A model generated the notes under the pieces. That model was not told the DNA's origin and did not search any database. It saw only the letters and a list, made by a program, of their open reading frames with translations. A DNA stretch of 64,000 nt from Takakia lepidozioides (lineage: Eukaryota; Plantae; Bryophyta), in the NCBI GenBank assembly GCA_030704615.1, contig CM060734.1, positions 17,856,001 through 17,920,000 on the forward strand. Reading direction: 5' to 3'. The position numbers were made by a program, and so were the translations under genes. Positions 2,673-59,862 of this stretch are shown in pieces. Positions within the stretch are counted from its first letter, which is position 1. Each line of letters begins with the position of its first letter.

Positions 2673-2870
2673 GACAACCGAGTTCTAGCCCATTGGTAAT
2701 GGGCACATACCACCTCGGAAGTGGTTGGGGGTTCAATCCACCGATTGGTGTCACTATGGTATCCAATGTCCACCTTCATGTTGGAAGGCAGTAGCCCTTC
2801 GGAGTCAAGAAACACCGTAATTTATGCCTCCGTTGGAAGGTGTCACAGATACATAGGGAGAGGAACTAGA
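2673..2870 (+). mobile_element. tRNA-derived SINE-like element
   Basis: Head gacaaccgagttctagcccattggtaatggg...ggttcaatcc has Pol III A-box- and B-box-like motifs. A clear homologue lies on the - strand at ~60620-60796. The 3' boundary is approximate. Confidence 0.6.
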
Positions 2871-2984
2871 GGAGGTAGCCAAGTGGGTGATCTGATAGGG
2901 GCCACCCCCAAAAAGTGGCTCTTAGTTACGCCGGCTTCGGCTCGAGTCCTCTCTCTCACTTAGGTGATCTAGGTTCAAAGTGTT

Positions 2985-3207
2985 TACCTTCCAAAGGGAA
3001 GGGAGGCAGTAGTTGCAAGTAGTTCCTGGGGATGAAGAGACACCAAAATAAAACAACCTCTTTCAAATGAATGGCGCCATGAGGTGCCGAGCACGGACAT
3101 ACCCGGGGAGAAGATATTACGGCACCCAACAAAGGTAGCAGGATTTGAGCCCAGAGTCACCTGGGTGCAGTGAGCGCTCATCCAACTGACTCTCCACCGA
3201 CTGGGTT
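2985..3207 (-). mobile_element. Degenerate SINE-like element
   Basis: The - strand head agtcagttggatgagcg...gggctcaaatcc is A/B-box-like. The body shares a ggtgtctcttca...actactgcct...ggaaggt module with the other SINE-like copies. Confidence 0.35.
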
Positions 3208-3639
3208 ATTATTATTATTTTCATAACCTGAAAATATTTATTATTGGAGCTCAGTGGCTACATGTGACTGGAATGAAAAACAAACTTATTTATTACTCAT
3301 AAAATATGAGAGGGCGTTGTTTCGAATGGCGGACTTTTAGTACCGTACGGTCACGATGTAGATAAGTTGATGAAAAACAATTAGAAACATTAAAAAGGGA
3401 AAAAGAGAAAAGATAAACACCGGGTGAGCCCTAATTAAGGAAGCAGCGACGGTGGAACTTATTGGGTGGGAGCCGGTGGGACCCAAAGAATCACAGGGGA
3501 GAGCACACAACACCGGGCGCTCTTTACTCTACGCGGAGCTGCCGCGCTGCCCGGCCGCCACGTTGCAGCACGCTGGATAAACTGCCTTGCCAACCCCACG
3601 GCTCACACCTGCCCTGCGCTCCCCCCTCGCAACCGTCCA

Positions 3640-3930
3640 GATCCGCATCGACGGCTCAAATTAGAGAAATCTCAGCCGTCCGGATCATCATCGACGGATC
3701 CGGCGTATCCGAGCCGTGTCCGTTGGCCCTCTCCAATCGACGGCATCCTTCGTCCACTCCACATCGACGGCTCTGAGTCCCAGTCATCGCAGCCGTCCAC
3801 CTACGATCTAAACGCTTTAATTTCATCTACATCCGCCGTCCATCATGATCGACGGTGCTAGAGCCATCACCTCTCTCAGCCGTCCATTCGCCACATCGAC
3901 GGACCCCGAAGGCGGAGATCGACGGCAGAT
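3640..3930. repeat. GC-rich cluster of catcgacgg / ccgtc motifs in both orientations (TE subterminal-like)
   Basis: Several copies of atcgacgg and inverted ccgtc within ~300 bp. Confidence 0.5.
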
Positions 3931-3998
3931 GGAGCAGTCCTGGTTTTCGGGGCTGCCCGTGGCAACAAGGAGTGCGTGGGCCCATGGATGGGCATGTA

Positions 3999-5104
3999 TA
4001 GGGAATTCCAAAAAGGCCTTGATCACCCCCTAAAAGTGCGCAATTCAATTGAATTGCAAGGGCAATTCAATTGAACTAGCCCTAATTTGCAATTCAATTG
4101 AATTGTCAACTCGTAATTCAATTGAATTGCTGACTACAATTCAATTGAATTGTAATCTATGATTTTTTAACTTATTTTTGTATATAATATATAATATATA
4201 TGTACATATATATATTCAAATTATATTTATACACATATAAGAGTATAAGCTAAAAATACATGTTGCCCGTCTATTCTTGCTGGCCCTCTTTCTTGTGCCC
4301 TTGAGGAAATTGTGGAGTTGTGAAGCCACCCTCAGCCTCAGCGAGAAAGAGAGAGCCAAAGACGGAGATAGATCAGCAGATTCCTGTGATTCAGTGGCAA
4401 AAGAAACATGGCTGGCTCCGAAAAAAACAGACGAAATCAAACCTTACAATTGATGAAAGGCTTCCCCTGCATCACCATGTAGTCCCCTAACACTAGTATC
4501 TGGCCCAGGACAAAGAAAACAAAAATATGGTCATCTTGAGAATTATCGATACCCTTACAAAAGTATCATGTTGAAGTTGGGATGTGTGTTCTATATAAGT
4601 TTAATATATCAAACTCTTACACGTTGATACTCTTACATTGGTATCATGTTTGGGATATGTACATAGCCATATATTGGCACCAACATCCACAAAGAGAGAC
4701 AATCCCGCTTTTACAAGCGCTTCGTGACTTCCTCTCTCTCCCTCTCTCGCTCTCCCTGAGGCTTATCTTGGGCTCAAGCCTTACCACGGGCAAAGGATTG
4801 ACAGACGGACAGCAAGAATAGATGGGCAACATGTATTTTTAGCTTATACCTGTGTATGTATATATGTATAATTTAAATATATACATATTTATTATATACA
4901 TAAGTAAGTTAAAAATTATAGATTACAATTCAATTGAATTGCCAATTCGCAATTCAATTGAATCGTGCCGACAATTCAATTGAATTGCAAATTAGGGTTA
5001 GTTCAATTGAATTGCCCTTGCAATTCAATTGAATTGCGCACTTTTAGGGGGTGATCAAGTGAATTGCAATGCATTGCACATCAAGGCCTTTTTGGAATTC
5101 CCTA
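3999..5104. mobile_element. Non-autonomous TIR element (1.1 kb) with 6-bp TSD
   Basis: Starts tagggaattcc (3999) and ends ggaattcccta (5104), with ~290-bp TIRs. TSD catgta at 3993-3998 and 5105-5110. Internal 4378-4680 is the reverse-complement homologue of 22716-23048 inside the 10-kb family member. Confidence 0.9.
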
Positions 5105-21710: not shown

Positions 21711-22408
21711 GGCACATGTACTGAGAACGCAACATAACCTGTAACTAAATGCAAAGACGCCTAGGGAATTCCAAATAGGCCTTGATGTGAAATGCAGCGC
21801 AATTCACTTGATCAGATGCCAATTCAATTGAACTAACCCTAATTTGCAATTCAATTGAATTGCTGACTGCAATTCAATTGAATTGTAATCTATAATTTTT
21901 AACGCAGTTTTGTATATAATATATATAATATATTATCATGTGTATGTATATGTATATGTATCGTATACACATATACATACGAGAGTATAAGATGAATATA
22001 CATGCTGGCCCGTCTATTCCTGCTGCCCGTCCATCCTTTGCTTGTGGTAAGGCCTAAGTCACGACATGAGTCGCGTACCCTAAAGGAGAGATATATACTA
22101 GAGAGAGAGGGAGAGGGGAAAGGGAGAGAGAAATGAAGTGATGAAGGGTTTTTAGGGCAGAGGTGCCCTAAAAGTGAAAGGATCAAATCAGTTGGAGGAC
22201 GAGAAATAACGAGAGAAGAATGCAACAACAAGTTTAGGGTTGAGCGGTGGTGGAGCGGTGGTGGCGCTATGTATGATGGAAGCCTTCTTGGATCACCAAA
22301 TGACAAGATCTGCCCATGAGTAAGCACATTCCCATATTGGCATGAGTTTCCCCAATCATTGATAAAGATATCATTTTAGCTAAAGCTGTAGTTCTTGTGT
22401 ACGTGCAG

Positions 22409-31372: not shown

Positions 31373-31858
31373 ACTAGTATATATGTGTAGTATATATCTC
31401 TCCTTTAGGGTACGCGACTCATGTCGTGACTTAGGCCTTACTACAAGCAAAGGATGGACGGGCAGCAGGAATAGACGGGCCAGCATGTATATTCATCTTA
31501 TACTCTCGTATGTATATGTGTATACGATACATATACATATACATATACATGATAATATATTACATATATTATATACAAAACTGCGTTAAAAATTATAGAT
31601 TACAATTCAATTGAATTGCAAATTAGGGTTAGTTCAATTGAATTGGCATCGCAATTCAATTGAATTGGCATATGATCAAGTGAATTGCGCTGCATTTCAC
31701 ATCAAGGCCTATTTGGAATTCCCTAGACGCCTGCTCACACGCTACCCAACCTCCATCGTTGCATATGAATGGTAGCGTGCCGAGTTGAGTGAGTGCGCAA
31801 AGAGCTCAAGTTGATGTTGACATGAAAGCACGAACTGCTTATACAAAGTTTACTCTCC

Positions 31859-38944: not shown

Positions 38945-39786
38945 AACCTTTCCAAGGTAAACCTTTGGCCTGTACTAGCTGCAGAAAGTTTGAAAGCTCT
39001 CCAGGGTGGGCTTGGTGCAATCTCTCTTGGAGGTCGGCTTTTGCTTCATCGAATCTTTGAGGTTCGTGCTTGGGTTCGTTATAAGTGTGATGTATTGCTC
39101 CAGGACAGGGTGCATAAGCAGGCAAAACGGTGATTTGGAGGCCCTAATGAGACTCTCTCTGGGGCTTGTAGTGAGAGTCTGAAATCTGGTAACTGATTCG
39201 ATTTTTGGAGCAATTATGAGCAGACAGTGAAGATGAGTGATGGGATTGTAAGCATAATACCAATAATGATATGCCAATCCTCTCAGTAGATACTTGCTGG
39301 TAGTTGAATATCTCAAAGATTACTAGATGGTGAATCTTACCCAGCTGCTTTTTGTATGATTGAACGGTATAGGTTGTGGCTGATTCAAGGAGCTCAGAGG
39401 CATTTGTTGCACTTTGCCTCCTGACAGTTACAGGCACATCCCTTTTGACGCAAAAGCTGGGCTTCAGTGACACGGTATGTCCCCACTGTCATCTTAGGTT
39501 TGGAACATTGAGGGATGTAGTGAATGTGCATTGAGCGTGGCCTAGGCTCCTTTTAGTGTAACTCGGGAGACCAAAAGAAACAGAGAGGCGAGAAGTTAGA
39601 TTTTGATACAACCAATGGGACTCAAGTTTGTGGTTACATGTTCTGATGCAGCTGGGAGCATTTCTAGCTGGCTCTTTGTTAGCTGAGACGAATTATCGGA
39701 CACAAGTGGAAGTTGACATACGGCCTTTTCGAGGGCTTTTGCTGGGTCTCTTTTTCGTCACCACTGGAACTTCTATTGACCTTCAG
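38945..39786 (+). pseudogene. KEA3: KEA3-like K+/H+ antiporter gene fragment (3 exons)
   Basis: Exons 38945-39061, 39373-39474 and 39652-39786 read [104 protein letters not shown]. Confidence 0.9.
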
Positions 39787-39859
39787 GTTCACTTCAACTA
39801 CACTTATCCTGATTGCTTTGTCATTGCAAGCTCAGATTCTCTCTCTCTATCTCCTCCTT

Positions 39860-41155: not shown

Positions 41156-41676
41156 TGTCGTGCACCTAAGCATCGTGCCACAACATACATCGTTGTCCAA
41201 CCACACTTCCTAGCATATAGTCCTAGAAAGTCACGTCATAATGATACGAAAATGGTGAAAAGATGAGAAACCACTCTATCACGTTATATAAGTCAAGTCA
41301 ATGGAACCTTTGTTAAAGGACTCCACCATACAGACTTCACCTATTCTCCATCTTAAGTACTAGAGCTATGGCGACGAGAGAGGCCTCGGGAGGCTCGACT
41401 AGAAGAAGACGAGCATGCTTACGTCTCACGTGGAGATAAATTCTCCATGTTTCAAGTGAGGTTCGTCACCTCACTTGGCACATGGAACCAAATGAAGTCC
41501 CAATGTCAACAAAATACAAATATAAATGTATAATGTCCTAATTAGTTAGAAATAATTATTTCTAACTAATCACAAATAAAACCATGACAGCTGTTGTGTA
41601 CCTAAGCATCGTGCCACAACATACATCGTTGTCCAACCACACTTCCTAGCATATAGTCCTAGAAAGCCACGCCACA
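41156..41676 (-). repeat. 3' LTR region: U (41676-41592) - gc - X (41589-41242) - t - U' (41240-41156)
   Basis: The 85-bp U unit is duplicated. The 348-bp X unit matches 59515-59862, roughly 90% by eye and mostly transitions. Confidence 0.9.
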
Positions 41677-41933
41677 ATCGCCCCCCTAGCTGGTGATTAG
41701 GTCCCTCTAACACCGGATAGTTTACAAGTATCTACCCCAATAAGATCATCGCTTGGTCTTCAATTGCACAAGTCCCAACACCTGAAGTCGATAAATCAAG
41801 AGGCCGGGTGCAAACGTAGCCCCATCGTTAGTCGTCTTCATACAATCCATGATCTTCAGTTGAGTATCCGTGGCATTGAAGCTCTACTAGCTAGACCATG
41901 GGTCACTTGTCCGCCTCATCATTGTCATGCCCA

Positions 41934-43500
41934 CTACCTCTGTCCAAGGCATCGTGGACACAACCATTATCCGATAGGAACCTCCTCAAGTGGCGGTATC
42001 AAGCATCCCATGTGCCACCCCCTTAAGCATTTGTCACACACCAACATGGTTGCGGCGCCACCAGCATGCCCACATAGCATGCAACGCAAACCTGCAGGTA
42101 CCACTGCAAGGTTGGGATCTATTCTCCCATCCACATATGGAAGGTGACATGACGCACAATTGCGCACATGGTCCTTCCATACCATGCCATCTCGACCCTC
42201 CAGAATCAATACTCCTGAAGGCAACACCTCCCCGACCCTTAGAATCACACGTCCTGCTATGACATCCAAGGTCGTAGGCGCTGTCTGCTGCAGATACACA
42301 TAGTCCCCAGGGTGGAAACGCCGAACACTTGGCCGATATCCCCCTCCACGTATAGTGGCGTACCTCAATGTGTCTCGGTGTTGGGCAATAGCAAGGTTCT
42401 CAAAAGCCATAGGCATGACTCTCTTGAACAACTCTGCCCGTTGGGCACATGTTTGTGTCCACACATCCGGATCATCAAGGTTGAGAACTATTGCAGCCTC
42501 CCTGCGAATAGATGCAGGCAAATCCGGCTCTAGGCCGAAGAGAAGAAAGTAAGGTGAGAAGGAGGCAAGTGAAGCTTGTTTGCTGAACCTATAGTCCATA
42601 GCTAGCCAAGGCAGTTGAAGGTTCCAATCTCCCAGGTGTCTCTTCTGCAAACCGTACTTGCGCAAACCTCTCTTGACTGTCTGAACAACTCTCTCCGCCA
42701 AGCCATCAGCCTCAGGATGATCCCGAGAAGTAGTGCGGTGATCTATCAAGGCTTGGTCACACAAAGCCTGAAACTCCCCCAATAACTCTCTCCCCTGGTC
42801 CGTGAGTACCTCGGCTGGAGCACCAAAATGGCTAAGCACTCGATCTAAGAATGCATACGCAGTCCCCTCACTTGCCTTGTCAGGCAATGCCACCAGTTCA
42901 ATCCATTTGGAGAAGTGTTCCACCATCACCAGCATATACTTGTTGTGGCGAATCGTCAATGGCAATGGGCCTGCGAAGTCAAGACTCCAACGATAGCCCA
43001 AACCCATAATGGGTAAATGATGCAATCGTGGAGTAGTGGCGTTGAAAGAAGCCCGCACTCTATCACACACCATACACCTTGCCACTAACTGTTGCACATC
43101 CATGTGCATGCCCCGCCACCAATACTGCCCTTGCAGCAAACTATGAGTGCGCCGCATCCCAAAATGTCCCAACTCCTCATGGGCATAGCGTACCAATCGC
43201 GCTCGTTGTGTTGGATGAGGCACAATCCTCAAGGCTCACTCGTCCATCCTCCCATACCCGGAGTAGATGAGTCCCTTCTCACTTGAACCTCTTGGCTCGT
43301 TGTAGGACCTGATCTCTCTCCTTAGTAGTCACACTAGCTGCTGTCTCTCCGGTATGAAGGTATGCCAACACTGCTGCATCTTCATGCACATCCTTAGCAC
43401 CAGCAAACTCCTCACTAGTCTCTGGATCATCATGCACGCTATCTACATGACCAATCGCATGGGATGGACCAGCTTGAGCTCCCATTGCTAGAATGCACAA
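41934..43500 (-). pseudogene. Gypsy integrase (HHCC + DDE) with C-terminal PHD finger
   Basis: AHEELGHFG...CMVC (HHCC), WSLDFAG, VLTDQG, DGLAERVV (D,D,E), GPY/F-like region, then CMLC...CDKC..WH..C..PPLEEVPIG*WLCPRC. A 7-bp frameshifting insertion lies at ~43230-43240. Confidence 0.92.
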
Positions 43501-43515
43501 AAAGACCGATGCATG

Positions 43516-45000
43516 TCATCCTTGCACCATCTCCTCATCCGTCTCACCATGCCACCGAGCTCCAGTATCATCGTGCTCGCTCGTGTATGGATTACGACTC
43601 AATCCATCTGCATCCCGATTGACAATACCGGCTCGATGCACCACCTGGAAGTCGTACTCTTGAAGCATAAGTGCCCACCGTACAAGCTTCCCTGTAAGCT
43701 TGTCTGACTCCATCAACCACTTCAATGGTTGGTGATCCGTGACAAGGGTGAAGAGATTGTCATAGAGGTAGCATCTGAAATGTGTCACTGCCCATACTGC
43801 AGCTAGACACTCCCCTTCATATGAACTATACTTCGCCTCGGCATCATTGTTCGAGCGGCTAGCATATGCCACTACGAACTTCCATCCCTCATCATCCACC
43901 TGTGTGAGCACTGCTCCAATCCCCAGCATACTCCAATCCGTATGTAGCTGGAAAGACCGCCCCCGAATAGGCCGCCTCAGAATAGGTACAGAAGTCAATC
44001 GAGCCTTGAGTTTCTCAAATGCTTCCTCCTGCTCCTCCTCCCATTGCCACTCCTGACCCACCTTGGTCAACTTGGTAAGAGCCTTTGCAATGCTGCTAAA
44101 TCCCTTGACAAACCGTCGATAGTAGTTTGTCAATCCCATGAAAGCACAAATTCTGCTCACATCCATGGGGCGTGGAATGCATGCAATGGCTTCCACCTTT
44201 GTCTGTTGAACACCCAATCCTCTAGGGTATATCATGTGGCCCAGATACTCAATCTGATTGTGGAAGAACTTGCACTTTCCGGGGTGCAGTTTCAACCCGT
44301 GCGCTCTCAAGCGCTCAAACACCACCTGAATGTGTCTCTCATGCTCCTCAACCGTAGCACTAAAGACAATGATGTCATCAATATAGCACCGGGCAAAGTT
44401 TAGCCCCGCGAGAATCCTATCTATGACTCTCTGAAACTCTGCAGGAGCATTCTTCAACCCAAATGGTAAGAACCGCCATTGGTACAAACAATCCTTCTCA
44501 TGTTGGTCAATCCCCTAGAATGTTGTCTTTTGCTTGTCAGCCTCTTTGATTGGCAACTGGTGGTAACCGGATCGCAAGTCCAATGTGCTAAACACCTTTG
44601 CATGCCCAATGGCATCAAAGATCTCCTCTGGAGTTGGCATGGCATATCTATCGGACTTAGTTTGACGGTTCACAGGACGATAGTCCCCACACATCCTTCT
44701 TTCTGTCCAATTGCCATAGATATCCTTCTTAGTTGGCATCACCGTTGCCGAGGCATACTCCCCGCCTGACAAGTCCACCAATCCAGCTTCGAACAACTCC
44801 ATAGTCCGTGACTGGATCAATGACCTCTCCATGTCACTATACCGGTAGGGCCTTCGAAAGATTGGCGTGTCACTTGCCAAATCAATACGAAACTCCTGAC
44901 CTTTCAAACTCCTCAAATCCTTCAAACTGAAGGCAAAGCAATTTCTATAAGCCCTTAGAATTTGCTGGATCCTCCGTCTCTCTCCTCCGGTGACTGTAGA
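43516..45000 (-). pseudogene. Gypsy reverse transcriptase and RNase H
   Basis: RMCGDYRPVN, LDLRSGYHQ, LPFGLKNAP, YIDD, LHTDWS, YEGECLA and TDHQPL motifs. One in-frame stop (44515). Confidence 0.97.
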
Positions 45001-45318
45001 TCCAACATCTGGTTCCCAATTGTCCTCAGTGACTGCAACCTTGGGTACACCAGGCTTGGAGGTAGGAGACGAATCCTTTGGTTGCTAGATAGCAACCTCT
45101 TGGGCCTTGTCCGCCCAATCTGACTGTGGCGTAGCCTCCACTTGCTCCGCCATAGCCACCTTGAGAACATCCTCCGCGCAAGAAACATCCTCAACCTCTT
45201 CAAAAACCTTGGTCACCTTGGCCTCCAACTGATCCTCAGTCCATGGCTCTCCCCACTCCTCATACTGCTGCTTGAGAGATCCAATGACTCTCTCTTTGCG
45301 CATCTCATCCCACATCTG

Positions 45319-46425
45319 TCATGGGTGTTTGCAACCCATGATCCTGTGCTCGCCCCCACTCACTGCCTCAACCGTCCCGGTTGGCAAGGAGGATGCACCA
45401 TCCAATGGGAGTACAGAAGTAGCAATCAATGCTTGCAATCTCCGTTGCTCAGCCATGCACAAGCCAATTATCCATGTCAAGCAATTTAGATCTATTGCTT
45501 GACCCAACACTTGGCGGTGTGATGCCTCTGACAGAGCTGGCATATCTGTAGTACCGGTGGCAAATCCCATTGCCCACTCTCGCTCATCCGCATTGGGCTC
45601 CATCAATTGTTGTAGCACACTGTCCCAAATCAATCCAGGACCATTGTCTCGAAAAGCATGAGACGAGGGAAAACTCATGAGCGTAGGCAAAGCCGAACGT
45701 GGCTGCCCCACTCGATTGACCCCTGCTAGAGGTGGACGGTCATCATGTCGCACCCTCTGTGGTTGTCTCCCTTGGTCCAAAATGCCCTCAACCGTGAGAT
45801 TGGGTGGCCGATGAATGGAATAATATGCTCTCTTGAGCAGCTCTGGTGGTGCAAGATTGGTCCACCACAATCGAGGTCGATGCGCGCGTGATCCCACCGC
45901 TGCCTCATCCAATAGCACCGCCGATCCAATCCAAGACCGCACCTGATGCACACTGGCCATAACCCTGGCCCGAGAATCCCCCATAAGAGGAACATTCTCC
46001 AAGATATAGCCTAGAGGTTGCACTTGCCTCGTCTGCAAGTCCCGCAACACTCGCAACATCTCCCAAAACAAATGCGTTCGTGCATCATGCAAGCCATTCC
46101 CATGACCTGCGGGAGAGTGTCCTTGGCAAGGCCATTCGGTTATCACCAAGTCAATGGAACCATGTCGCTGCAAATCATCCGCCCCCAGCAAGGTAATGTC
46201 TGCTGGCAAGGCCTTTTGATACCCTTGAACTGCTGAGAGAGGCAACAACTCAGGATACCGGTGTGTGAGCAAGGCAATGTGGCGCATAAAAATACGCCGA
46301 GCAATCTCATCCTTCTCCACATATAAATACTTGCGTACTTTAATCCCTGCTTGCAACACTCCTGCAAGCCCTCTGCTCATGCCTCCAAACATATCTAGCA
46401 AACAAATCCCTGAGTCAGGTGGTTG
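45319..46425 (-). CDS. C5 DNA cytosine methyltransferase domain (DNMT3/DRM-like) within the Gypsy polyprotein
   Basis: Motifs in canonical order: I LLDMFGGM, II YVEKD, IV DLVITEWPCQGHS, VI YILENV, VIII AHRPRLWWTN, IX ERE.AMGF..G.T, X RQVLGQ. In the same frame as protease and RT. Confidence 0.93.
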   Translation of the reverse strand, partial: QPPDSGICLLDMFGGMSRGLAGVLQAGIKVRKYLYVEKDEIARRIFMRHIALLTHRYPELLPLSAVQGYQKALPADITLLGADDLQRHGSIDLVITEWPCQGHSPAGHGNGLHDARTHLFWEMLRVLRDLQTRQVQPLGYILENVPLMGDSRARVMASVHQVRSWIGSAVLLDEAAVGSRAHRPRLWWTNLAPPELLKRAYYSIHRPPNLTVEGILDQGRQPQRVRHDDRPPLAGVNRVGQPRSALPTLMSFPSSHAFRDNGPGLIWDSVLQQLMEPNADEREWAMGFATGTTDMPALSEASHRQVLGQAIDLNCLTWIIGLCMAEQRRLQALIATSVLPLDGASSLPTGTVEAVSGGEHRIMGCKHP

Positions 46426-47736
46426 TCAGGTAATGGGCACTGTGTCCAAAAGAGCTAACTCAGGAGGTCCAGGTGATGTCACTGAACTCCCCTCATTCAC
46501 CAATGGAAAGGCCTCCCGCCATGCTTGGTGCACACACTCGTCTGCTACTCGATGCAAATTCCCAACCGTACCCCACAGTGGAATATGCACAGGCACATGA
46601 GGAAGCAAATCAGCCTTGTATGCCAATTGTTTGTCCTCATCAGGTGATGGCCTATCATCTGCATGGCTATTGCCCTCCAAAAGCTCACCACCCCAAGTCA
46701 CCACCCCTGAGAATGCAGCCAATGTGGGCATCATGTTCCTATGATCCACCGCTACATTCCCAATAAACCGCACTGGGAGCAGTACACGTCGGCCATCTCC
46801 TGCCTGCCATTCCGGCCTGTAGGATGTCGTTTCCTCCCAAAAGTCCAAAGTAAAGCCCATGGGGTATAACACGGCCCCACCAACAAGCACATCATAAGAC
46901 TTCACGTCCGTAACAATGGCTTTAGCTCTCATGACTGAGCCGTCTGTAGGATGGTCCGGCTGCAATCGAATGAAGAGCTCATGGAGTATAATCCCTCGTG
47001 TCTTCTCTGAACTGCCCAAAGATGTTTGAATTTGGAAAGGACAATGCTCCAAATCCGCCTCTGTAAGGCCTAAGCCTGCAATTGCTGCTCTTCCCAACAT
47101 CAATGGCTGTGCTCCCGAGTCCAACAAGACCCGCAGTGGCCTATACCTCTTCCCGGCTAGGCCACCCAACTGAAACACACCATCCTGATTGTTCACCAGG
47201 ACTACCCCAGGAGTCACCATACTACGCTCAATGGCTGGTCTAGCTGACAACTCCTGCAACCTTGCAGCTGCCGCTTGCCATGGTGCAGCTGTGGCTGTCT
47301 TCACCCTTGAGTCCATGACATCCATACACTGCACATTATCCGCTATCCCTGCAGATAGTACCGATGCATCACCACTCTCACAGAGTCTAGCTGCTAGTCT
47401 AAACACATCAGCTGGCCGAATCCCCGACATTGCAATGGTCATCGCAGAAAACAATGGAGCTTGGCAAACCGCCGTAGCCGCCCCCAACAATGTACTGGCT
47501 GCACCCTGCTTTGCAGCACCACCCACTGGCATTTCCCGAGCCACACCAACTCTCTCCACTGGTATTCGTGGCTCTACCTCTGACACACTTGGGTAAGCGG
47601 GTACCATCGATGGCGTAGTTGGCACTGTCTCAGCCAATGTGAAAGACTGTGGAAGCCTTGTCTGTCGACTTGCTTCCCTTTTTTGTGGATCAAAATCCAC
47701 ATCTGCTCCTCTTGGCTGAGGAGCACGCGTTGCTGC
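46426..47736 (-). pseudogene. Gypsy aspartic protease region
   Basis: VLLDSGAQ catalytic motif and YDVLVGGAVL. Same frame as Gag and DNMT. Confidence 0.88.
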
Positions 47737-49010
47737 TCAAGTGACAGCAGCTGCAGAGTCCACATGCAATAGTCCAGCAAGTGCGGCTCCACACATGAAG
47801 CCCATACCAATCTGGTCTTCCCTAGGCATAGGAGGTTGTGCAGGTGGGGCTTGAACCTCAGGCCTTGGAGCTGACGCCACATTAGTAGTGGCCATGGCAG
47901 CAAGACGTTGCTCTAGTTGGGCAAGCCTATCTACCATGCCTTGGTCATGACCTTGACCTTGACCTTGTGCTCGTTGGTTTTGGTTACGACCTCCACCGCG
48001 ACCTCTGTCTCCTCTACCTCTCTGGACTACATTGCCTCGTCCTCGGCCACCATTGTTCTCTTGGAACTGGCCTGGCCATAGCTCAGGATGCAAGTCATAA
48101 CAATGGGCCTCTTCATGCCCATACTTGCCACAATGCCCACACTGTAGTTGTGTAGGCTGTGCCTGTGCCGGCCCTTTGCCTCTCTTCGGGCAATCTCTCT
48201 TAACATGGGGTCCTCCACAATCCCAACATGTCACACCCGACTGTTGTTGGCCTGAGAATGAAGGAAGTGACCTCTGCAATTGAGATCCTCTCTGTCCTTC
48301 CCTGGGCTTCGCCTGAGCCCCCTTGTTGCCTTGAGCACGTTGGGGTAGTGGTTGTTGTTGGCTAGGAGCCCCACTTCGTTGTGTCTCCTTACCAAACCCC
48401 ACCATGACCACTCGCTCCTCCACCATATTGAGCTCTATCCACTCTGCCAACAAAAACACGTTTGTTAAGGTGGGTTGGTCTACTTGTAGGAGAGTTGCAT
48501 CCCGCACCCTTCTCCTTAGCTCCTTGTCCAATATCCCATACCAAAATTGGACTGCTTGAGCTTCCGTAACCCTTTGGGTTACATTTATCAATCGCCTCAT
48601 GTGCGTATAAGCCTCCCTCAAACTCTCAGTAGGCTTGCGCTGGAACTCTTGCAAGCTCCGCAATTTCTCCGTCCTTATCCCCTGATAGTTTCTCCTCAAC
48701 TCCTCGAAGAACTCCGCAACTGGGTTAAAGGCAGGCACGGGTGCTGGTGCTGCAGCAGGAGCTTGAGTGGATTTCCCAGCTCCATCTTTACTTGTCCCAC
48801 TACTAGTGTTTGCAGTTGGGGATGTTGGTGTAGCTGCTGGCCTTGAAGGTGCTGAAACAACCCCTTCCACGCCATAAAAGGCGTAAATAGTTGTGGATTG
48901 CGCATCTGCTGCAAATCACACCAACTATCAAACTCCTGTATGAAATCATCAAGCTCGATGGTGCCCACAGCTCCCGAGTACCAACGTGGTCCCTTGGTAG
49001 CTCCATACAT
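47737..49010 (-). pseudogene. Gypsy Gag with two CCHC zinc knuckles
   Basis: Retrotrans_gag-like helical region (LQEFQRKPTESLREAY...QFWYGILDKELRRRV) and knuckles CWDCGGPHVKRDC and CGHCGKYGHEEAHC. Frameshift/deletion near 48850. Confidence 0.88.
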
Positions 49011-49945
49011 TTCCTCAATCGTATCCCACAACAATGGAACGGAAATGGCTTGCACCCTCGGCGAGAATCCTCCTAACTCTGAGTCTGAACCTTCCAGAAG
49101 ACACTGAAGGTGAAGGTGGCCTAAACCGTATACCTCGTGTTGTATACCCACTAGTATCGCTAGTGCTCGTACCGGCACTCTCATCAGCAACTGGTGGCAC
49201 CTCCGTGATGAAAACTCACACTCAAACCGGCTATCAGCTTGTCTCTAATCCCTGGGGGGTGCACTCTTTATAAAATGTCCGTATCACGTGCGTTCGCCGC
49301 CTAAAGAAAAACCCCCTATATACGGGTCCTTGGATCATTTATACCCCCTCTGTACATACATTTTGAAGATTATAAAACCCCCTCCTGTAAATATATAGAA
49401 ATTTTTAATTTTTAAAAAGTACCGCCTTCTGTATGTATATTTTCTTTTTCAATAATTAAAAAATACCCTCAAATATGTATATGTATGTTTTTATATTATA
49501 TCAAGTTTATTCATTTAAAAATAGAATAAAATCTAATAAATTAGTTTAAAAAAATCTGTTTGCTCTCGATAAAACTTGCTGTGGAATCTCACTTTATACA
49601 ATAATCAGATGCAGAGAGGAAAGAGACATTGTCAATGCCCGATGTGCAAGAGGCCTGAAGAAAGTTTCTACTTTCTGATATACAGTCCTGGGTATTTTCA
49701 TCAGAGAGTGACCCTCTTGAAGACCATCAAGACCTAGTCACTGCACCTCTGTTCATCAACTAGGACAGTTTATGAACTTGTTCTACAGTTTCAACCTTCG
49801 CAAGGTCCAATTATGTTCAAAACCTACTGTTGAGAATTCCTCTCCAAAAAGAGATTTCGTGCGCCTTTGCTGCCACTGTTGGAGTCCAACCTGACTCGCA
49901 GCTGACAGAGTTCAATACATTCAATTAGGTGACAAGCATTTCATT

Positions 49946-50209
49946 TCACCAATACTTCCCACAAGAACAAACGCCATTTTGGAAGTGGTGAAAGCGGTTT
50001 GCATCCCGTACAGCAATCTCTTGCTTAGCTATCTTTGAGATGAATTTGGTGGCTGTGTGGCAATCACCACACATCCGAAGATTCCTGATGATCCTCAAAG
50101 ACATCCCAGAGGGTGTGTTGATAAGCCCAAAAACAATGGCGAGCTTCTCATTGTGGTGTCAAAGAGACGATTTTTTAAGCTCTTCCGCAACATCATGCAA
50201 TGCAAAGCG
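49946..50209 (-). pseudogene. DYW cytidine-deaminase domain fragment (missed by the ORF track)
   Basis: [85 protein letters not shown], containing HxE, CxxC and a terminal xYW. Confidence 0.92.
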
Positions 50210-53200
50210 GGCTTCACCCCTTCGCACATCATTTGCTCATAGGTCTCCAAAGCCTCCATCCCGCGCCCTTGCTGTGCATATCCTGCAATCATCGCACTCC
50301 ACAACAGCACATCTCGTTCAGCCATACTGTTGAACACTCCCTTCATACATGTCCACGAGGGTATTGTTCAGAATGCCATTTGATACAATTGCAAATCTGA
50401 CAATGTCGCCATGGACCTCTTTGCCCTTTTCCAAAGCTGACAGGCTTGCACACACATTGCAAATGTACACAAACGTGATGTGGTCGGGCTTCACCTCTTC
50501 CCCCATCTTTTGATCATAGGTCTCCAAAGCCTCCATACCACGTCGTTGTTGTGCATACCCTGCAAGCACCGCACTCCACGACACGACACCTCGTTCAGCC
50601 ATGGAAACTCCCTTCCCATCCTTAATGCACCCACATTTGGCATACATGTCCACCAGGGGAGTGTTCAGAATGACATCTGGTACAATTCCAGCTTTGACAA
50701 TGTCACCATGGACCTCTTTCCCTTTTTCCAGAGCTCGCAGGCTTGGACACGCATTGCATCCTGCCAACATTATATTCCACGTGATCAAAGATCGTTGAGG
50801 CATTCTGTTGAACACTTGGTGAACATTAATGATGCTCCCGCACATAACATACATGTTGACAAGGGTGTTGAGTAGAAAAACATTGTGGACTCCCTCTCTT
50901 GATCCTCTTTCAGAAGCTGTGGTCATGGTTGAGGTGCCTGATTTTATCAACTGTGCCGCTGCAGCTGCTGCCTTTAGTTGACCATCTACCCATGCAGGTT
51001 TCTTGTAGCTACTGACCCCCACATGGAATCAAGGTAATCTGGAGCTTGAAGTCCAGCCCTCTTGGATGAATTTGGACCCACACTCTATCCATGCTCATTC
51101 AGGGAAAAATAGGGAAAAACTTTGATAATAGGGAAAAACAGGCTGAAATGTGTTGAAGAAAGTACCTTCATTAGCAGCGTCTTGTTCTATCAAATGCACT
51201 GCTGCCGCTGCTGTTTCTAGTTGACTATGTACCCACGCAGCTTTCTTGTAGCTATTGATCCGCAGGGAATCAGAAGTAATCTTGTGTTTAAAATCGACCT
51301 CTTGGATGAATCGTGTTCCTCGACACCACCTCGTTCAGCCATAGTGTTGAACACTCCCTCCGCATCCTCAATGCTCCCACAATGGCATACATGTCCACAA
51401 GGGTATTGTTCATAATCACATCCGGTACAATTCCAGCTTTGGTGATGCAACCATGCACCTCTTTGCCCTTTTCCATGGCTGCAGGCTTGCACACGCACTG
51501 CAAAGCACACAAACATGATGTGGTCGAGCTTCACCATTTCCCCCATCATCTACTTTCAGGTCTCCAAAGCCCCATCTCGCGCTCCTGCTCTGCACACCCT
51601 GCAAGCATCGCATTCCACGACACCACATCTCATTCAGCCATAGTGTTGAATACTCCCTTGGCATCCTCAATGCTCCCACATTTGGCATATATGGCCACCA
51701 AAGCAATGTTCAGGATGACATCTGGTACAATTACAGATTTGATGATGTCACCAGGGATCTCTTTGCCCTTTTCCAGGGCTGCCAGACGCACTGCAAACGC
51801 ACACAAACGTTATGTGGGCGGTTTCACCCCTTCCCCCATTATTTGCTCATAGGTCTCCAAAGCCTCCATCCCGCACCCCTGCTGTGCATACCCTGCAGAC
51901 ATCACAATCCACGACACCACATCTCGTTCAGCCATAGTGTTCAGAATGACAGGTAATCTGATAGGCATTCACCTTTTTGCATTCACTTTTTTGCCTCGGT
52001 TGTCCCACCATTGACTGGGGTCAGAAAAGTATTCATTCCACAGCTTCTCCTCATCTCTGTTACCTCTTTTAGGATACTTTCATGTTGTCAGTTGGGAGTA
52101 TCATGTCAAAGTCACTCCAAACTATCAAAGATTCACTCAACCAGCTAACTTGCAGAATTCAATATGGATATTTAGGGCCGATTCTGATAAGAGGGAAAAA
52201 CAGGGTGAAATGTGTTGAAGAAGGTGCCTTCATTAGCAACGCTTGATTTTATCAATTGTGCCGCTGCTGCTGCAGCTTCCACTTGACCATCTATCCATGC
52301 AGGTTTTTTGTAGGTAATCATAGGTAATCTGGAAAACGGCTCCTGGCAAATCACCTTCATCTTCCCAAACAATCTTCTCAGCTCAGCATGGATTTCCTTA
52401 ATTCTGGGATGCAACTTGTCATCTACAATGAAGGTGTGCACCTTGTTGCAAACCTCAATGCAGCAGCGACCTGGCTCCTTTTCAACCCCTCTGACCTTCA
52501 TCATTCTTCTCACCTTTACAGTATCAACCCACATGCCAGCTACAGCATAGATGTTTGATAGTAACATAAGTCGCGGCATCCTGTTCATTCCACTTGAGGA
52601 TAGATGTTGCCGCACGTTCAGGTCCACTGCCTCATCCAGTTGTCCCGCACGTCCAAGAAGGTCCACCATGCAGCCAAAGTGCTATACTGCCGGAGTGACA
52701 CCATGATCTTGAATCAGGGAATCGAAGTAGCGTCTTCCTTCATTCAGAAGGCCAGTGTGGCTGCATGCAGAGAGAACACAAACTGCTCCAAGCCGTTCTT
52801 TTGCATTCCTTCAAATAGTTGCAGGACCTCCCTATGACAACCATGCTGTGCATATCCTGCGATCATTGCATTCCACGACACCACATCTCATTCAGCCACA
52901 TTGTCGAACACTCCATTTGCATCCTCCATGCACCCACATTTGGCATACATGTCCACCAGGGCAGTGTGTATGATCACATTTGGTACAATTCCAGCTCTGA
53001 CGATGTCGACATGCACCTCTTTGCCCTTTTCCAGGGCTGCCAGGCTTGCACACGCACTGCAAACGCACACAAACGTGATGTGGTCGGGCTTCACCCCGTC
53101 GCACATCATTTGCTCATAGGTCTCCAAAGCCTCCATCCCACGTCCCTGCTGTGCATACCCTGCAAGCACCGCACTCCACGACACCACACCTCGTTCAACC

Positions 53201-53995
53201 ATAGTGTCGAACACTCCCTTTGACTTTGTAAAAGAAGATAGGTCCCTTTGATGGGGCATGGATTGAAGTGGTTTCGCAGTCCTACTTGTTGTTTCCTCCT
53301 CGCCATGTCCATCTTCTGCTTTGGGGCGGGGTCTAGGGTTGGCAAGGTTTTAGCAACCAGTGTCATGACTCTCTCTCTCCTCCTCTTTGTTCTGCCTAAT
53401 CTGGGTGCAGGGTCTATGGCCACAAGGCTATCATGAGTACTTTCTTCCTCACACACACCTCTCCATGTTCCGCCCCAACTGGGCACAGACTGGGTAAATG
53501 GCCACAATGCAATGGCAAACTTCGTATGAGTACATTTTTCTCTCTCTACTCTTGGCAATAGACTGAAATTGAAATGCAGGTCGGGGAGTGTACCTTTGAA
53601 CAAACAAACAGATGCAGAGATGAGAGGTAGCCTGTCAATGCCCGACGTGCGGGAAGCCTGAAGACTTAACATTTTCTGATACATTTCCGGTGTACACTCC
53701 CATCTGAGAGCGACCCTCTTCACTTACATCAAGAACAGATCCTTGCACGGCAGTTCGCCAAGATGCACCCACATTTTGCAAACATGTCCACCAGGGTATT
53801 GTTTAGAATGACAGCTGGTACAATTCCAGCTCTGAAGATGTCGCCATGGACCTCTTTCCCCTTTTCCAGAGCTGCCAAGGTAGTGTTTAGAATGACATTT
53901 GGTACAATTCCAGCTTTGACGCTATCCCCATGCACCTTTTTGCCCTTCTCTAGGGCTGCTAGGCTTGCACGACGCCACATCTTGTTCAGCCATCT
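50210..53995 (-). pseudogene. Shuffled PLS-PPR and E/E+ domain fragments
   Basis: Multiple frameshifted PLS motifs. E/E+ region at 52172-52669 (MVDLLGRAGQLDEA...LLSNIYA...KEPG..IEV.NKVHTF..DDKLHP). A YKKPAW.DGQ..AAAAA.LI block occurs three times. Confidence 0.9.
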
Positions 53996-54959
53996 TCGCG
54001 GAAGGGAAGGCGAACGCGGGAGAGGAGATAAGAGGAGGAGAGGGAAAAGAGAAAGCCGTGGGAGGGAAGAGGAGAAAGATCGCGGGGAGAGAGAAAAAAA
54101 AAAAACCAAACAAAATGAATTGATCCCGTGGTGCATCGCAGCATAATCGTCGTTCTTACCACTACACTACCCTTGAAAACTCAACAACCCCCTCCTGTAA
54201 TATTATATTTAAGGTGTTTTAAACCCCCCTTTGTATGTATAATGTTGTACATGGGAGGGTTTAAAATACCCCCTCCTGTGCACGCACGTGGCTGGTACAT
54301 TTAATGAGGAGTGCACCCCCCAGGCTCTAATCCCCCTTTCCACGAGGTAACCGGGTAGAGAACCTGTTGCAGCTTATGGTTTGGAATACTAGGTTCATAT
54401 TCTGAACCTGCATCTACACCTGCATCCACCGCCGGCACTCCTATGGTCTGCTGGTCATCAACCCAGCCTCACCATAAGAGAAACAATGATGGTCTGCTGG
54501 TCATTACCCCAGCCTCACCACCGACAGCACGCTCTAGGATTGGCCGGCCACAATATTTCCGGCACAACCACCTATAAAAGCAAGCGCCCAAACCAAACTA
54601 GCATGGCGCACAGTCAAGCATGCATGTGTGGGAGGAGGATCCAAACACAGGAAACTCAAACAACAACACATCCCACAACTTAAATCCATCGATCTCCTTG
54701 CGGCTTCAATAAACCTGCAAGATGGCCTAGTCTCTATCCAAACCAGCTCTGCCTCCGCTTACGGAAAAGCTTTGGCCTACAAGAATGATGGAAGACTATA
54801 GAGAATGGAAGCTAAAGCAATCTCTAAGCCCAGAATGCTCTCATCCCATTATTCCCCCTATCTTCACACTCACTCTTGCTCAAGCAAAAGATAAGACTAT
54901 CCTTAAAGAACCTCTCAAATAACTCTCAAGAACCCTCAAATTATTGCCATGAACTTCTG

Positions 54960-56060
54960 AAATCTGCCCTCAATCAGCCCCTAACATAGACCCACCGAGG
55001 TTCAAGAAGTTCGCAAACTCTAAACAATCCACCAAAAGGGCCTAGGCGCCCGCCAATTAGTGGCCTCCACGGTCTCCAACCAGCCCCCACAATGGCTCCA
55101 CAAGCCTGCCCAATATGGCCTCCAAGAGTCCTCCAAACAGCCCTTAAGAAGCTCCTCAAATCTGCCAAGTATTGGCCTCCAAGGACCTCCAATAGCCCTT
55201 AAGAAGCTCCTCAAATTTGCCAAGTATTTGCCCCCAAGGACCTCCAATAGTCCCCCAAAGAGCTCTTAGAAAACTCCATAAGCCTGCCCAATATGGGCAT
55301 CCAAGGACCTCCAATCGTCCTCCAAACAACCCCAAGCAGGCTCCACAAGCCTGCAAGATATTGGCTTCAATAGACCCCAAATAGTCCTCAAACAGGCCCC
55401 AATACCTGTAAGATATTGGCCTCAATAGATCCCAAATAGTCCTCAAAGCAGGCCCCAGAAGGCTCCAAAAATATCCATAGTCAGTCGATTTTTCATCCAT
55501 CACTGACCAAATTTCATCCCAAACCGCGATTTCTCATCTGCAGGACCGATACTTCATCCGCCGCGATAGTTCATCCGTCGGTGTAATATTTCATCCGCTG
55601 GTGCGGTTTCATCCGTCGCCGTGATTTTTCATCCGATGGCACGATAGTTAATCCGCTGCCACGATTTCATCCGCTGACGCAGTATCATCCGTCGCCGTGA
55701 TTTTTCATTCGATAGCGCAATAGTTCATCCACTGCCATGATTTCATCCGCTGACGCAGTCTCATCCGTCGCCACGATTTTTTATCCGATAGCGCGATAGT
55801 TCATCCGCTGATGAGATTTCATCCTCTGGCGCAGTTTCATTCATTGCAACCGATTCTCATCCAGGAGTGCCGATTTTCATCCACTGGCTCAATAGTTCAT
55901 CCGATTGGACAATGGTGGTGCTCCAAACTCAGGGGCAATGTTCCCATGCGTTCCTATGCGTTCCCACGAGTTCCCAAGGAGTTCCCAAACGTTCTCACGC
56001 GTTCCCTTGAGTTCCCAAAGAGTTCACATACGTTCCCAAGCGTTCCCACGCGTTCCCAAG
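54960..56060. repeat. Degenerate tandem arrays (~56-bp unit, ttcatccg motif array, ttccca motif array)
   Basis: Repeated aagaagctcctcaaat.tgccaagtatt units (~55140-55260), many ttcatcc(g) copies at 55490-55905, and ttccca(a/c)g at 55940-56060. Resembles CACTA subterminal repeats. Confidence 0.75.
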
Positions 56061-56084
56061 TGCACAAAGGGTCAACTGACAAAG

Positions 56085-56696
56085 ATTCTTTGTTGCTTGA
56101 GTGTAGATTACTTGTTGAGCGCACGGAGGTCTCTGAAGGAGGGGAGGGTGCCGTTTCAAAGAATGATAGAACCAATGCTTTAATGAGGGCTAATAGCTCA
56201 GCCAAAATTGAAGCTGCCAAGGTCAAGAAAGAGAGAATAGTTGCAGGTCTTCCTCCCACGGTGATTTTGACGAACCTCAAAGGAGCCCCGTATGGTCAGA
56301 CCCGGAATGTATGGCACGCTGCCCTTAAAGGACAGGCTTATCGCAAGCTAGATTGTTCCCTTGCCATCAACAACCAACCTGATGAAGTTGTATACGAAAT
56401 TAGAGATCACCTGGCTAAGCTATTTTCATATACGCCGCACGAGTTAAAAGACTTCCACCTAAAACAAACAATTGGCAGAATAATGAAGAGCCAGCGTTAT
56501 GAAGCACACACTGCGTGGTTGGGTGGTAAGGGGAAACCCATTACTGTATCTGACGAGGTATGGAACAAGCTTGTAAGTTACTGGCAGACAGAGGTGTTCC
56601 ACAAAGTGTCGGGCAACATGAAGAAGGCAAATGGTGTAATTCTGAATCCTACCAAGACTGGCCGTGGTGGGAAGGCAATGGTGGAAGCACGCTTGG
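56085..56696 (+). CDS. CACTA (En/Spm) TnpA-like protein fragment (Transposase_24-type)
   Basis: IGRIMKSQRYEAH...KPITVSDEVWNKLVSYWQTEVFHKVSGNMKKAN...TKTGRGG motif typical of Ptta/En/Spm ORF2 proteins. GT donor at ~56696. No CACTA termini found. Confidence 0.75.
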
Positions 56697-57616
56697 TAAG
56701 TGGCATCATCACGACTCTGTATTTTGTTCCTCATTGAATTGCTATGTGTATATAGTCAGCCCTCACATTGCTTACTGACTTGTGGCATGGGTTTGTTTGT
56801 GGCATGGATTAATTTGTAGGAAACACTATCAGGGTGCCTTCCTACATTATATGAAATTCAAGAGGGTTCAGTGTCACGGTTGTCAGCTGGGAGTGACAGG
56901 CGGGTAAGTGTGTTTTCCACGTTTGCTAGAGTGGTTGCTGCATCATAGGTTGCTAGGGTTTTTTTCACGGCTTTTGGCCTGGGTTTTCTTTCCAATGGTT
57001 GTTCATGCTAGGTTTTTTGGGTTTGATTCATACTTGGGCAAGTTTTCATGGATTGGCAGGAGGGAAGTCTCGCATATTCTACAATAGTTGGCAGGATGGA
57101 TGGCTTGGACAAACTGGTGGAATCACAAGGACGTGACATGGCAGAATTAAAATTACAGATGCAGAGTATAATTGAGTACCAGAAAGCCATTGTGACGAGA
57201 TTGGGGATTAATCTACCAGGCGCAGGACCAGTGATATCTACGATGGATACGTCTGCTGTGACAGTATCAAAATGTTTGGAATCCCAATTTCAGACGGTAA
57301 CTGGTGCTCACTCTAAGCCCTTATGTCTTCCTGTCACTGATGATCTTTTGAATTTGACCGAGCAGCAGCAGGATACAGGGAAGGCCAGCTGTGAGGTACA
57401 CGTGGAAATTCAGCCCTTGCCACGTACAAAGGCAGTAGCAGTCCAGGGGGCAATGGTGACAGAGCGGCCGGGCACACCGATTCTGGTATGCAGGTATGTG
57501 GGAGTTTAGATGGGGAGGAAGATGCAGACGGGGACAAAACAAACAAGCAGGTTGCTTTAATTTCTCCTGCTCACATGTTGAAGCCAAATGTCAGTTTACT
57601 TCCTGGACCAACGAGG

Positions 57617-58130
57617 AAGCATTTACTAATTCTGGACTTAAATGGTCTGTTGTGAATCTTTTCATTCTGCTAATGGGCCTGCATCCCTTCCCAAAGGTTT
57701 TGTGGGGAAGATGTGTGGCAAGAAGATGGTAGTTTTGAGACCACGCTGTTATGACTTTTTGCAAAAGTGTTTTGAACACTTTGAGGTGGCGGTGTGGTCT
57801 TGTTGCCAAGCTCGCAACTTCTTCCCAATGGTGGACTATATTTTTGCAGCCCACACTAACCTGGTTTTCCAGTGGGATGCCCTTCACTGTGACGAGGATC
57901 CAGTCCTCCCATGCCGTAAGGGGTCTGATTCAAAGCCATTATATTTCAAGCCATTATATTATGAGGACACTGTTCTTGTTGATGACACACCAAGAAAGGC
58001 GGCAAACAATCCTCCCTTCAGTAGGATTTTTCCAGAGCCATGGAAGGTGCAACCAGATTCACCAACTGATGAGTATCTAACAGAGGTGTTGTGGTCTTTC
58101 TTGTGGAAGGCATCGAAAAGCTGCCAGTAT
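57617..58130 (+). pseudogene. FCP1/NIF-type HAD phosphatase-like domain
   Basis: KHLLILDLNGLL* then VLRPRCYDFLQKCFEHFEVAVWSC...FQWD..HC...YFKPL...TVLVDDTPRKA.NNP. Confidence 0.8.
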
Positions 58131-59514
58131 TCCCAAGTTTTTGGAGTCTCAGCCTGTTTTCGGACAATAACCATACAACACTGCTACTGTGAAGGTACAA
58201 ACATTCTGACAGTGCTCCAGAGGCTACATTTTTGTGGGTTCATTCATTGCATTGCTTTCCTGGATGCTTCTCCTCGGTTGCTTGATTAATGCTAGGTTTT
58301 CTTTGCAGCTTTTCATGTTGGTTTTTTTTGTTTGATTCATACTTGGATTTTGTTTCTATTCACTATTCCTGTTTGCTCATTGCTTTCCTGGTTGATCTCT
58401 GGTCTGTGACACAGGAACTTGTGACAAATAAAGGTGATATTGTCGACAAGCCGGTACAGACGAGGGGCAAGAGTGTCAAGCCGGCGAGTAGCCCCCCAAA
58501 AGAGGTCTCACCACCACTAGAGACTGCAAATGGAGTAAGTCCAGGCCGTTGTCTTGTCTGTTATATTTTTTCCAACCTTGGGGCTCTCTTTAACTCGCAA
58601 ATGTTGAGTGTCCTAGTCATGTGTATGTCATGGGTTTTCACATCATGTTCTTATAACAATTTCTAAAGCATCTAGATGTTGATGGAAAGTTGATTTCAAC
58701 CTCTTCAATTTCAGCCCTATGGTATGAGTAACGAACTCCACTATGCGAGGCATCACATCATGGAGGTTAGTGACACCCATGACGTACTTGGCAATTGTTT
58801 TCTTTGCTGTGAAAGACAGCTGCTTGGTCATATACTCGGGGGGAAGAGTGTAAGTTAGACAGGCAGTGTTTGTTACTGGGGGAGCAAGCAAAAGAGGAGC
58901 TGAGGTATATAGCTTTTATGGGGGAGAATGTGGGCATATGTAGTTGTGACATAGCATGGAGTGGGGACAAGGTAGTTCTATCCTATTGAGCTTTCTATGG
59001 CATACCCTCTTCTAGCTATCGCATGCACTCATAGTGTTTCCTTCTTTGGTCATAATGCACCTCTTAGAGCTCCCAATCCAGCCCTGCACTTGTCACTTCC
59101 ATAGACATGCTCTTCCCAAGCTTGGGATTGAAATCCCAACTCAAAGCATGCTCTACAAATACACTATTCTGCCCCAAAAAGAAATCAAACTACCTCCACT
59201 CATAGCTCTCCTAGCTTGAAGTTGAAGACTCCCACAAGCTGAAACCATGTTCCACACATGCACCGCTTGCTTCCTTAACACCCGAGCTCTTCTTGAACTC
59301 CTCAAACACTGCAACACTTGCAGAACAAAAGCTTCTTCACAAGCTCTCAAACTTTTCAATGGGGCTCTCCTTGAATACATAAACACCACAAGGTTTTCTT
59401 CTTGCAAACCCTGCAACATTGTAACTTAAGAGCTATCTACCAAGCTCTCTTCCACACACAAGTGCTAACTATGCTAACACCTTGCACTCATAGATGTAAG
59501 CAGGTCTCTTCTAG

Positions 59515-59862
59515 TGATACTGAAATGGTGAAAAGAGGAGAAACCACTCTATCACGTTATATAAGTCAAGCCAATGGCACCTTTGCTAAAGGACTCCACC
59601 ATACAGACCTCACCCACTCTCCATCTCAAGTAGTAGAGCTATGGCGGAGAGAGAGGCCTCGGGAGGCTCAACTAGAAGAAGACGAGTCTGCCTACGTCTC
59701 ACGTAGAGATAACCTCCCCATGTCCCAAGTGAGGTTCGCCACCTCACTTGGCACATGGAACCAAATGAAGTCCCAATGCCAACAAAATACAAATATAAAT
59801 GTATAATGTCTTAATTAGTTAGAAATAACTATTTCTAACTAATCACAAATAAAACCATGACA
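59515..59862 (-). repeat. 5' LTR segment X (348 bp) of the Gypsy element
   Basis: Same length as, and colinear with, 41242-41589. Lacks the U segment. Confidence 0.92.

Follow-up and report, generated by a model that had tools for sequence, protein, structure and literature searches.

The window, the whole stretch of 64,000 nucleotides of Takakia lepidozioides analysed here, contains a land-plant Ty3/Gypsy retrotransposon with the domain order gag-PR-DNMT3-like-RT-RH-INT-PHD: a DNMT3-like cytosine methyltransferase lies between the protease (PR) and the reverse transcriptase (RT), and the integrase (INT), which follows RNase H (RH), ends in a PHD finger. Having weighed the evidence presented below, we favour, with a probability of roughly 55%, the reading that the integrase with its finger would tether integration to nucleosomes lacking H3K4me3, and that the methyltransferase would methylate the cDNA of the element within the particle. 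The family is old, widespread and partly described, and the locus in the window is a dead copy of it. What is added here is the extent of the clade, the finding that PHD and DNMT can be separated, and a predicted leaky stop codon between them.

The order gag-PR-RT-RH-INT is found on the minus strand, to which all coordinates of the element refer. Gag (47740..49019, with a frameshift near 48850) carries two zinc-knuckle-like motifs, and the aspartic protease (46837..47181) has the motif LLDSGA at 47127. The DNMT3-like C5 cytosine methyltransferase (45322..46425) has the motifs WPC, ENV and HRxR and, in this copy, a stop at each end. An in-frame amber stop followed by CAA CCA (45079..45087), a predicted readthrough context of the TMV type, lies between it and the reverse transcriptase and RNase H (43519..45084, YIDD at 44385). 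This last region contains a premature stop at 44517, and a further stop and a frameshift come ahead of the integrase. The integrase ORF (41970..43235) comprises an HHCC zinc domain, a DDE core (SLDFAGP, LTDQG, GLAER), a GPY/F-like region and the start of the PHD finger. In all, the coding part has several stops and two frameshifts: the copy is inactive and decayed.

Three repeats stand at the 3' end: B1 (41592..41678, 87 bp), which immediately follows a purine-rich tract; A2 (41239..41589, 351 bp), which starts with TGTCATG; and B2 (41156..41242), 94% identical to B1, which forms the end of the element. A second copy of A, labeled A1 (59512..59862) and 92% identical to A2, marks the likely 5' end, and the whole is a DIRS-like A..B-A-B layout. 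The 87-bp duplication was considered as a target-site duplication and rejected: it is the B repeat of the family. Of 57 longer relatives, 15 show an end of the form B-x-B; L074 and L077 have the A..B-A-B layout in full. The published element KnitGypsy-Dnmt3 (de Mendoza 2018, PMC5890265, cited like the other papers below for the accessible part of its text) also has a DIRS-like repeat structure. By its description it shares with the element of the window the Ty3/Gypsy domain set, a polyprotein whose DNMT3-like domain is not rearranged, and the A..B-A-B layout; the latter element differs from it in its land-plant host.

A nested element of 5,082 bp (49243..54324) accounts for part of the long 5' leader; it has a 10-bp target duplication and 43-bp terminal inverted repeats, contains pieces of PPR/E/DYW pseudogenes (Pfam) and is Pack-MULE-like. 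The joint 49242>54325, without this insertion, occurs in three contigs of run X1 and one contig of run X5. The PPR genes were rejected as cargo of the retrotransposon, since they belong to a later nested insertion missing from other copies. Also in the leader, the interval 55000-58290 holds on the plus strand tandem repeats, a weak Transposase_24 match and a NIF phosphatase-like ORF; it is probably another nested insertion, CACTA-like. Outside the element, an exon of a K+/H+ antiporter was observed at 39630-39790 on the plus strand, covering positions 226-282 of the 375 of the Na_H_Exchanger profile. No further antiporter exons were found among the 40 of 61 frames scanned, and the element may lie inside an intron of that gene. 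Together with the PPR-DYW pieces, the exon suggests a land plant as host. The window contains no tRNA genes. Long, highly similar inverted repeats at 21755-22100, 31388-31732 and 2000-5100 form a foldback/MITE-like family of CAATTCAATTGAATTG units.

A preliminary description of this DNA had proposed that the integrase ends, after the GPY/F-like region and in place of a chromodomain, in a C4HC3 PHD finger with one premature stop and with no cage Trp two residues before its His. All of this was borne out. The finger (41949..42083) reads CMLC-x11-CDKC-x4-H-x2-C...PPLEEVPIG*WLCPRC on the minus strand, has all eight zinc ligands within 42083-41949, and shares the frame of Integrase_H2C2, rve and the GPY/F-like region (ORF 43235-41970). 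The part ahead of the stop scores 25.3 bits against a Pfam cut-off of 24 (PF00628, E 1.5e-5), and the chromodomain by which chromoviruses are recognized has no Pfam match at E<=0.1 on the integrase of the element. The residue two before the His is Gly. The stop is a TAA at 41969-41967, the following in-frame stop being at 41936-41934. Position 41969 carries another letter than the window in 114,159 of 116,147 of the summed contig depth of run X1 (54 contigs) and in 179 of 179 of the depth of run X5: since the contigs of other copies differ at this position, the stop is private to the copy in the window. For the finger of L017, an intact relative, AlphaFold2 predicts the expected two short strands, with pLDDT 76-85 over the PHD core.

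Searched against the sequences of the PDB, the finger gives 61 matches at E<=0.01, and all 60 that are listed are PHD-containing chromatin proteins. The nearest structures are the PHD pairs of KMT2C/D, KDM5A/B PHD1, Lid, WSTF, ATXR5, DPF2/3, KAT6, AIRE, BHC80, UHRF1 and CHD4, which place the finger in the non-cage class; fingers of ING, BPTF and TAF3 are absent from the 60 matches listed in either PDB search. Aligned with KDM5B, whose residue roles (A1 pocket, D328, D308) are those of PMC4225485, the finger of the window keeps the A1-pocket residues L325, P347, G349 and W351 and the R2-binding D328. It lacks equivalents of D308, the K4 acid, and of E321, and reads PAGLR-C ahead of the first Cys. 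Among 72 distinct fingers of the clade, Asp follows Cys3 in 64, a K4-type acid is present at Cys1-2 to Cys1-5 in 36, and the cage Trp occurs in one; a second R2 acid (Asp or Glu, after Cys4) is likewise found in one, and is absent from the window.

The missing K4 acid is not fatal to a reading of unmethylated K4, since the close match ATXR5 recognizes K4me0 by means of backbone carbonyls, with no side-chain acid (PMC5499861). In the accessible descriptions, KDM5A/B PHD1, ATXR5, AIRE PHD1, BHC80 and UHRF1 share with the finger of the window the C4HC3 pattern, the Asp after Cys3, the A1 pocket and the lack of a cage Trp; the finger departs from these readers of unmodified H3 in that Cys1-4 is not acidic, the second R2 Asp is missing and an integrase is fused to it. 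Judging from its residues, it likely binds the unmodified start of H3, and a preference for H3K4me0 is likely too, strict selectivity for K4me0 being less sure. The non-cage class and the A1/R2 pocket suit the earlier view that the finger is an H3K4me0 reader, but two of the expected contacts, the K4 acid and the second R2 Asp, are missing.

The same residues bear on two other readings. In the first, the finger would act as a general nucleosome tether in the manner of UHRF1, reading H3A1 and H3R2 and largely ignoring methylation of K4, with no real targeting to H3K4me0. The K4 acid missing from the window and from half of the clade suits this reading, and so does the R2 Asp kept in 64 of 72 fingers; the UHRF1 PHD is itself among the PDB matches, and its affinity falls only 3-fold with K4me3 (PMC3214078). 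We regard it as unlikely, however: the UHRF1 mode depends on a second Asp and on an additional zinc finger (PMC3214078), neither of which is present here, ATXR5 manages to exclude K4 methylation with no acidic side chain (PMC5499861), and both KDM5 PHD1 and ATXR5 outscore UHRF1 in the PDB searches. In the second, which we hold to be very improbable, the finger would read no histone and bind instead a host chromatin factor, its own integrase or DNA. The PHD pairs of KMT2C/D bind non-H3 proteins, and double-PHD fragments of KMT2C/D lead both PDB searches; loop 1 is, moreover, acid-poor in the subclade of the window. Yet the residues that are retained are those of the H3A1/R2 pocket, and most of the 60 listed PDB matches are named readers of the H3 tail.

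The joint distribution of PHD and DNMT was counted in relatives retrieved with the integrase core alone: an earlier count of 37 out of 38 with PHD was biased by a query that included the finger, and the core-only counts are used in its place. In a representative set made of the best 150 sequences at 50% identity, 120 are informative, and 117 of these have the PHD; three lack it despite ample room, and the 30 others end too early. DNMT is present in 63 of the 117 PHD-bearing representatives (61 between RH and INT, two ahead of RT), absent from both slots in two and from the RH-INT slot only in six; 46 are too short. Consequently, where DNMT status is clear, 63 of 65 PHD-bearing representatives have the enzyme. 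We also considered 87 loci together with the window, the 80 metagenome loci among them being the best of 480 confirmed matches: 77 have the PHD, two lack it (L037 and L060, both broken within GPY/F and not clean losses) and nine are cut. The 77 divide into 28 with DNMT, four without (as evidence of DNMT loss, the decayed L002 and L033 are weak) and 45 uninformative.

The named close relatives are proteins of Marchantia, Calypogeia, Sphagnum and Coleochaete, and a distant one is a protein of Scenedesmus, a member with a three-module make-up of PHD, DNMT3 and a DAM-like domain. An amino-methyltransferase-like domain after the PHD (DP[WF]xGxG, with [TS]SP[WP]F in some) was observed in algal-type relatives: where at least 400 aa follow INT, 54 of 62 PHD-bearing representatives have this tail, which is absent from the branch of the window. 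Several algal-type relatives (P0029, P0020, P0227, P0037, L085 and others) also have a weak Tudor-like match beyond the PHD. GTDB yields nine matches, seven of them close, in bins labelled bacteria or archaea; L081-L087 are intact eukaryotic retrotransposon contigs in GTDB genomes labelled cyanobacterium, Mollicutes, Halorubrum and others, and the GTDB matches, these included, are likely eukaryotic contamination of the bins. IMG/VR holds no close locus and one distant PHD-less Gypsy. As a separate observation, genes for histone H3 were noted in 38 contigs of viral collections (L091-L128), many of which come from giant-virus bins; the H3 tails are near-canonical, and some carry insertions after K27.

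A tree of RT-RH-INT with 74 rows gathers all PHD elements into a single clade, the three Gypsy outgroups being PHD-less, and is broadly matched by the DNMT tree (Spearman 0.66 over 49 shared tips, the pairs not being independent). On the evidence of these trees, the pairing of PHD and DNMT is ancestral, and their co-occurrence is traced to one ancestral element. It is in this sense that the two domains are, as had been anticipated, non-independent across the clade.

The preliminary description had gone further, to a reader-writer pair, comparing the finger with the ADD domain of DNMT3. Spelled out, such coupling would mean that the finger brings DNMT to H3K4me0 nucleosomes, either within a readthrough product left uncleaved or by being held together with it in the pre-integration complex, and that the enzyme methylates there the insertion and its flanks. 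The long co-retention of PHD and DNMT also fits such coupling. The counts given above (63 representatives against two, 28 loci against four) and the agreement of the trees speak for coupling, as does the nearest structure of the enzyme, DNMT3A. The best case for it comes from the algal-type branch: there DNMT directly precedes INT-PHD in one ORF (61 of the 63 representatives with both domains), a disposition that would allow a DNMT-INT-PHD product. However, a co-occurrence that stems from a single ancestor is not independent evidence. In ADD-DNMT3 the reader is next to the catalytic domain, whereas in the branch of the window RT-RH-INT, some 1,100 codons and a conserved amber stop intervene; and across the clade DNMT is found in two different slots, the PHD always on INT.

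The losses point in the same direction. The rows without DNMT require four changes on the tree, three of which strong branches make unavoidable (44 of 74 rows), and their monophyly is rejected with p-AU 9e-9, in a test on 42 rows that left out the decayed L033 and in which the group was named after the first tree. The dN/dS of the PHD is 0.043 for L083/L086, a pair of a DNMT-less lineage in which the upstream slot of L083 is out of view, and about 0.045-0.05 in DNMT-bearing pairs, dS being near saturation. There was more than one loss of DNMT, the PHD being retained under purifying selection. Conversely, P0246 has a DNMT with its catalytic motifs and no PHD. There are losses both ways, and PHD and DNMT are therefore separable. 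Because of the conserved stop, the intact DNMT-less lineages with a constrained PHD, and the PHD-less DNMT of P0246, a unit of the ADD type is disfavoured: this part of the preliminary description was not upheld, and we consider coupling in general quite improbable.

The amber stop was at first a candidate for decay, which was rejected since both its place and its context are conserved. In the window, TAG CAA CCA at 45087-45079 stands between DNMT and RT, in the same frame, and in the intact loci L017, L019 and L081 gag-PR-DNMT and RT-RH-INT-PHD lie in one frame with a single stop between them. A stop is present at this place in 20 of the 29 loci with DNMT before RT: the window, L017, L019, L081, L044, L035 and 14 near copies of one family, four tree lineages being represented. 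The nine loci without it belong to a second land-plant subclade, and the frame is also open in P0081. The motif CARYY follows the stop in 18 of these 20 junctions, near copies included, versus 11 of 712 background in-frame stops; for the exact CARYYA the numbers are 6 of 20 versus 0 of 712. The signal UAG-CAR-YYA is that of TMV readthrough, which reaches 6-10% in transgenic Arabidopsis (PMC2754532). Since the window has no Met codon between the stop and the start of RT, the predicted readthrough would be the simplest route to ORF2. The amber stop accounts for the form in which proteins of this branch appear in databases, as either gag-PR-DNMT or RT-RH-INT-PHD. In KnitGypsy-Dnmt3 the authors place DNMT in the ORF of RT (PMC5890265); here the two share a frame, interrupted by the amber stop in those 20 of 29 loci. 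No mention of a leaky stop in these elements was found in the accessible literature, where figures and bioRxiv supplements could hold one.

A more ambitious account joins the stop to coupling. Throughout a green-lineage Gypsy clade that extends from chlorophytes to land plants, the PHD integrase would dock on H3K4me0 and bring along the DNMT3-like enzyme to methylate the insertion, as a mobile and independently assembled counterpart of ADD-DNMT3A; a TMV-type leaky stop would set the ratio of reader to writer in land plants, and the amino-methyltransferase-like domain would be a third module in the algal branch. This account seems to us decidedly doubtful.

The methyltransferase itself (46425-45322) matches PF00145 with E 1.1e-9, and its best PDB matches are DNMT3A/3B. 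Among 78 DNMT domains, the catalytic Cys is present in 75, EN in 76/74 and RxR in 76/76. For streptophyte Gypsy-DNMT3, PMC5890265 describes conserved catalytic residues under purifying selection, and puts forward methylation of cDNA as a role of retrotransposon DNMTs. In the elements studied here, the enzyme probably acts on the element's own DNA, separately from the PHD.

Parts of this picture have been published. Streptophyte Gypsy-DNMT3 elements are also named in bioRxiv 10.64898/2026.05.21.726589 and PMC12344493, and the accessible text of PMC6338049 describes land plants, with tracheophytes as example, as lacking methylase-encoding transposons. The text and searchable supplements of PMC5890265 contain no mention of a PHD, although its Fig. 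4c may show one, and the elements are not mentioned in the examined text of the REXdb paper and of the Marchantia methylome paper. PHD fingers on retrotransposons are called widespread in PMC6673714, PMC8557442, PMC9940879 and bioRxiv 2021.11.30.470311. Chlamydomonas provides two points of comparison, neither of which is listed with a DNMT in the text at hand, unlike the clade of the window. The first, REM1, is reportedly a PHD-bearing Gypsy retrotransposon. The second, Gypsy-7a_cRei, likewise has a PHD as accessory domain of its Gypsy polyprotein, proposed to steer insertion, and shows a 2.6-fold intergenic bias (PMC9940879). The EpiLTRs of Cymbomonas and Euglena (bioRxiv 10.64898/2026.05.21.726589) also unite a histone reader and DNA methyltransferases in one LTR element, but with a chromodomain, a DAM and an enzyme sister to DNMT4; the clade of the window has a PHD and a DNMT3-like enzyme, to which the algal-type branch adds a separate amino-methyltransferase-like tail. 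No text describing PHD and DNMT3 in one Gypsy element was found in the accessible literature; figures, bioRxiv supplements or the REM1 paper could hold it.

We return to the reading that we prefer, separate roles for finger and enzyme. The finger would be a targeting module because it occupies the site held by the chromodomain in targeting integrases (PMC6673714, PMC9940879): chromoviruses likewise carry a histone-reader module after GPY/F at the C-terminus of the integrase (PMC6317226, PMC6673714), here replaced by a PHD with a different predicted mark. The finger would grip H3A1 and H3R2, disfavouring K4 methylation only moderately, and the integrase that it tips would steer the integration complex away from H3K4me3 promoters. 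ORF1 encodes gag-PR-DNMT, and ORF2, which encodes RT-RH-INT-PHD, would be reached by leaky readthrough, such that DNMT is made and packaged at the levels of Gag, in excess of INT-PHD. After cleavage of the polyprotein by the protease, DNMT would meet the cDNA within the particle, with no guidance from the PHD.

In the accessible literature, PHD fingers on transposon proteins are proposed as targeting devices, and tests of this proposal were not found there. The clade offers natural lineages without DNMT and without PHD, together with two positions for DNMT, and it has copies in Marchantia, a genetic model for which chromatin maps exist; the role of DNMT and targeting by the PHD both become directly testable. 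The conserved leaky stop predicts that as much methylase is made as Gag, and this suggests that the enzyme acts within the particle.
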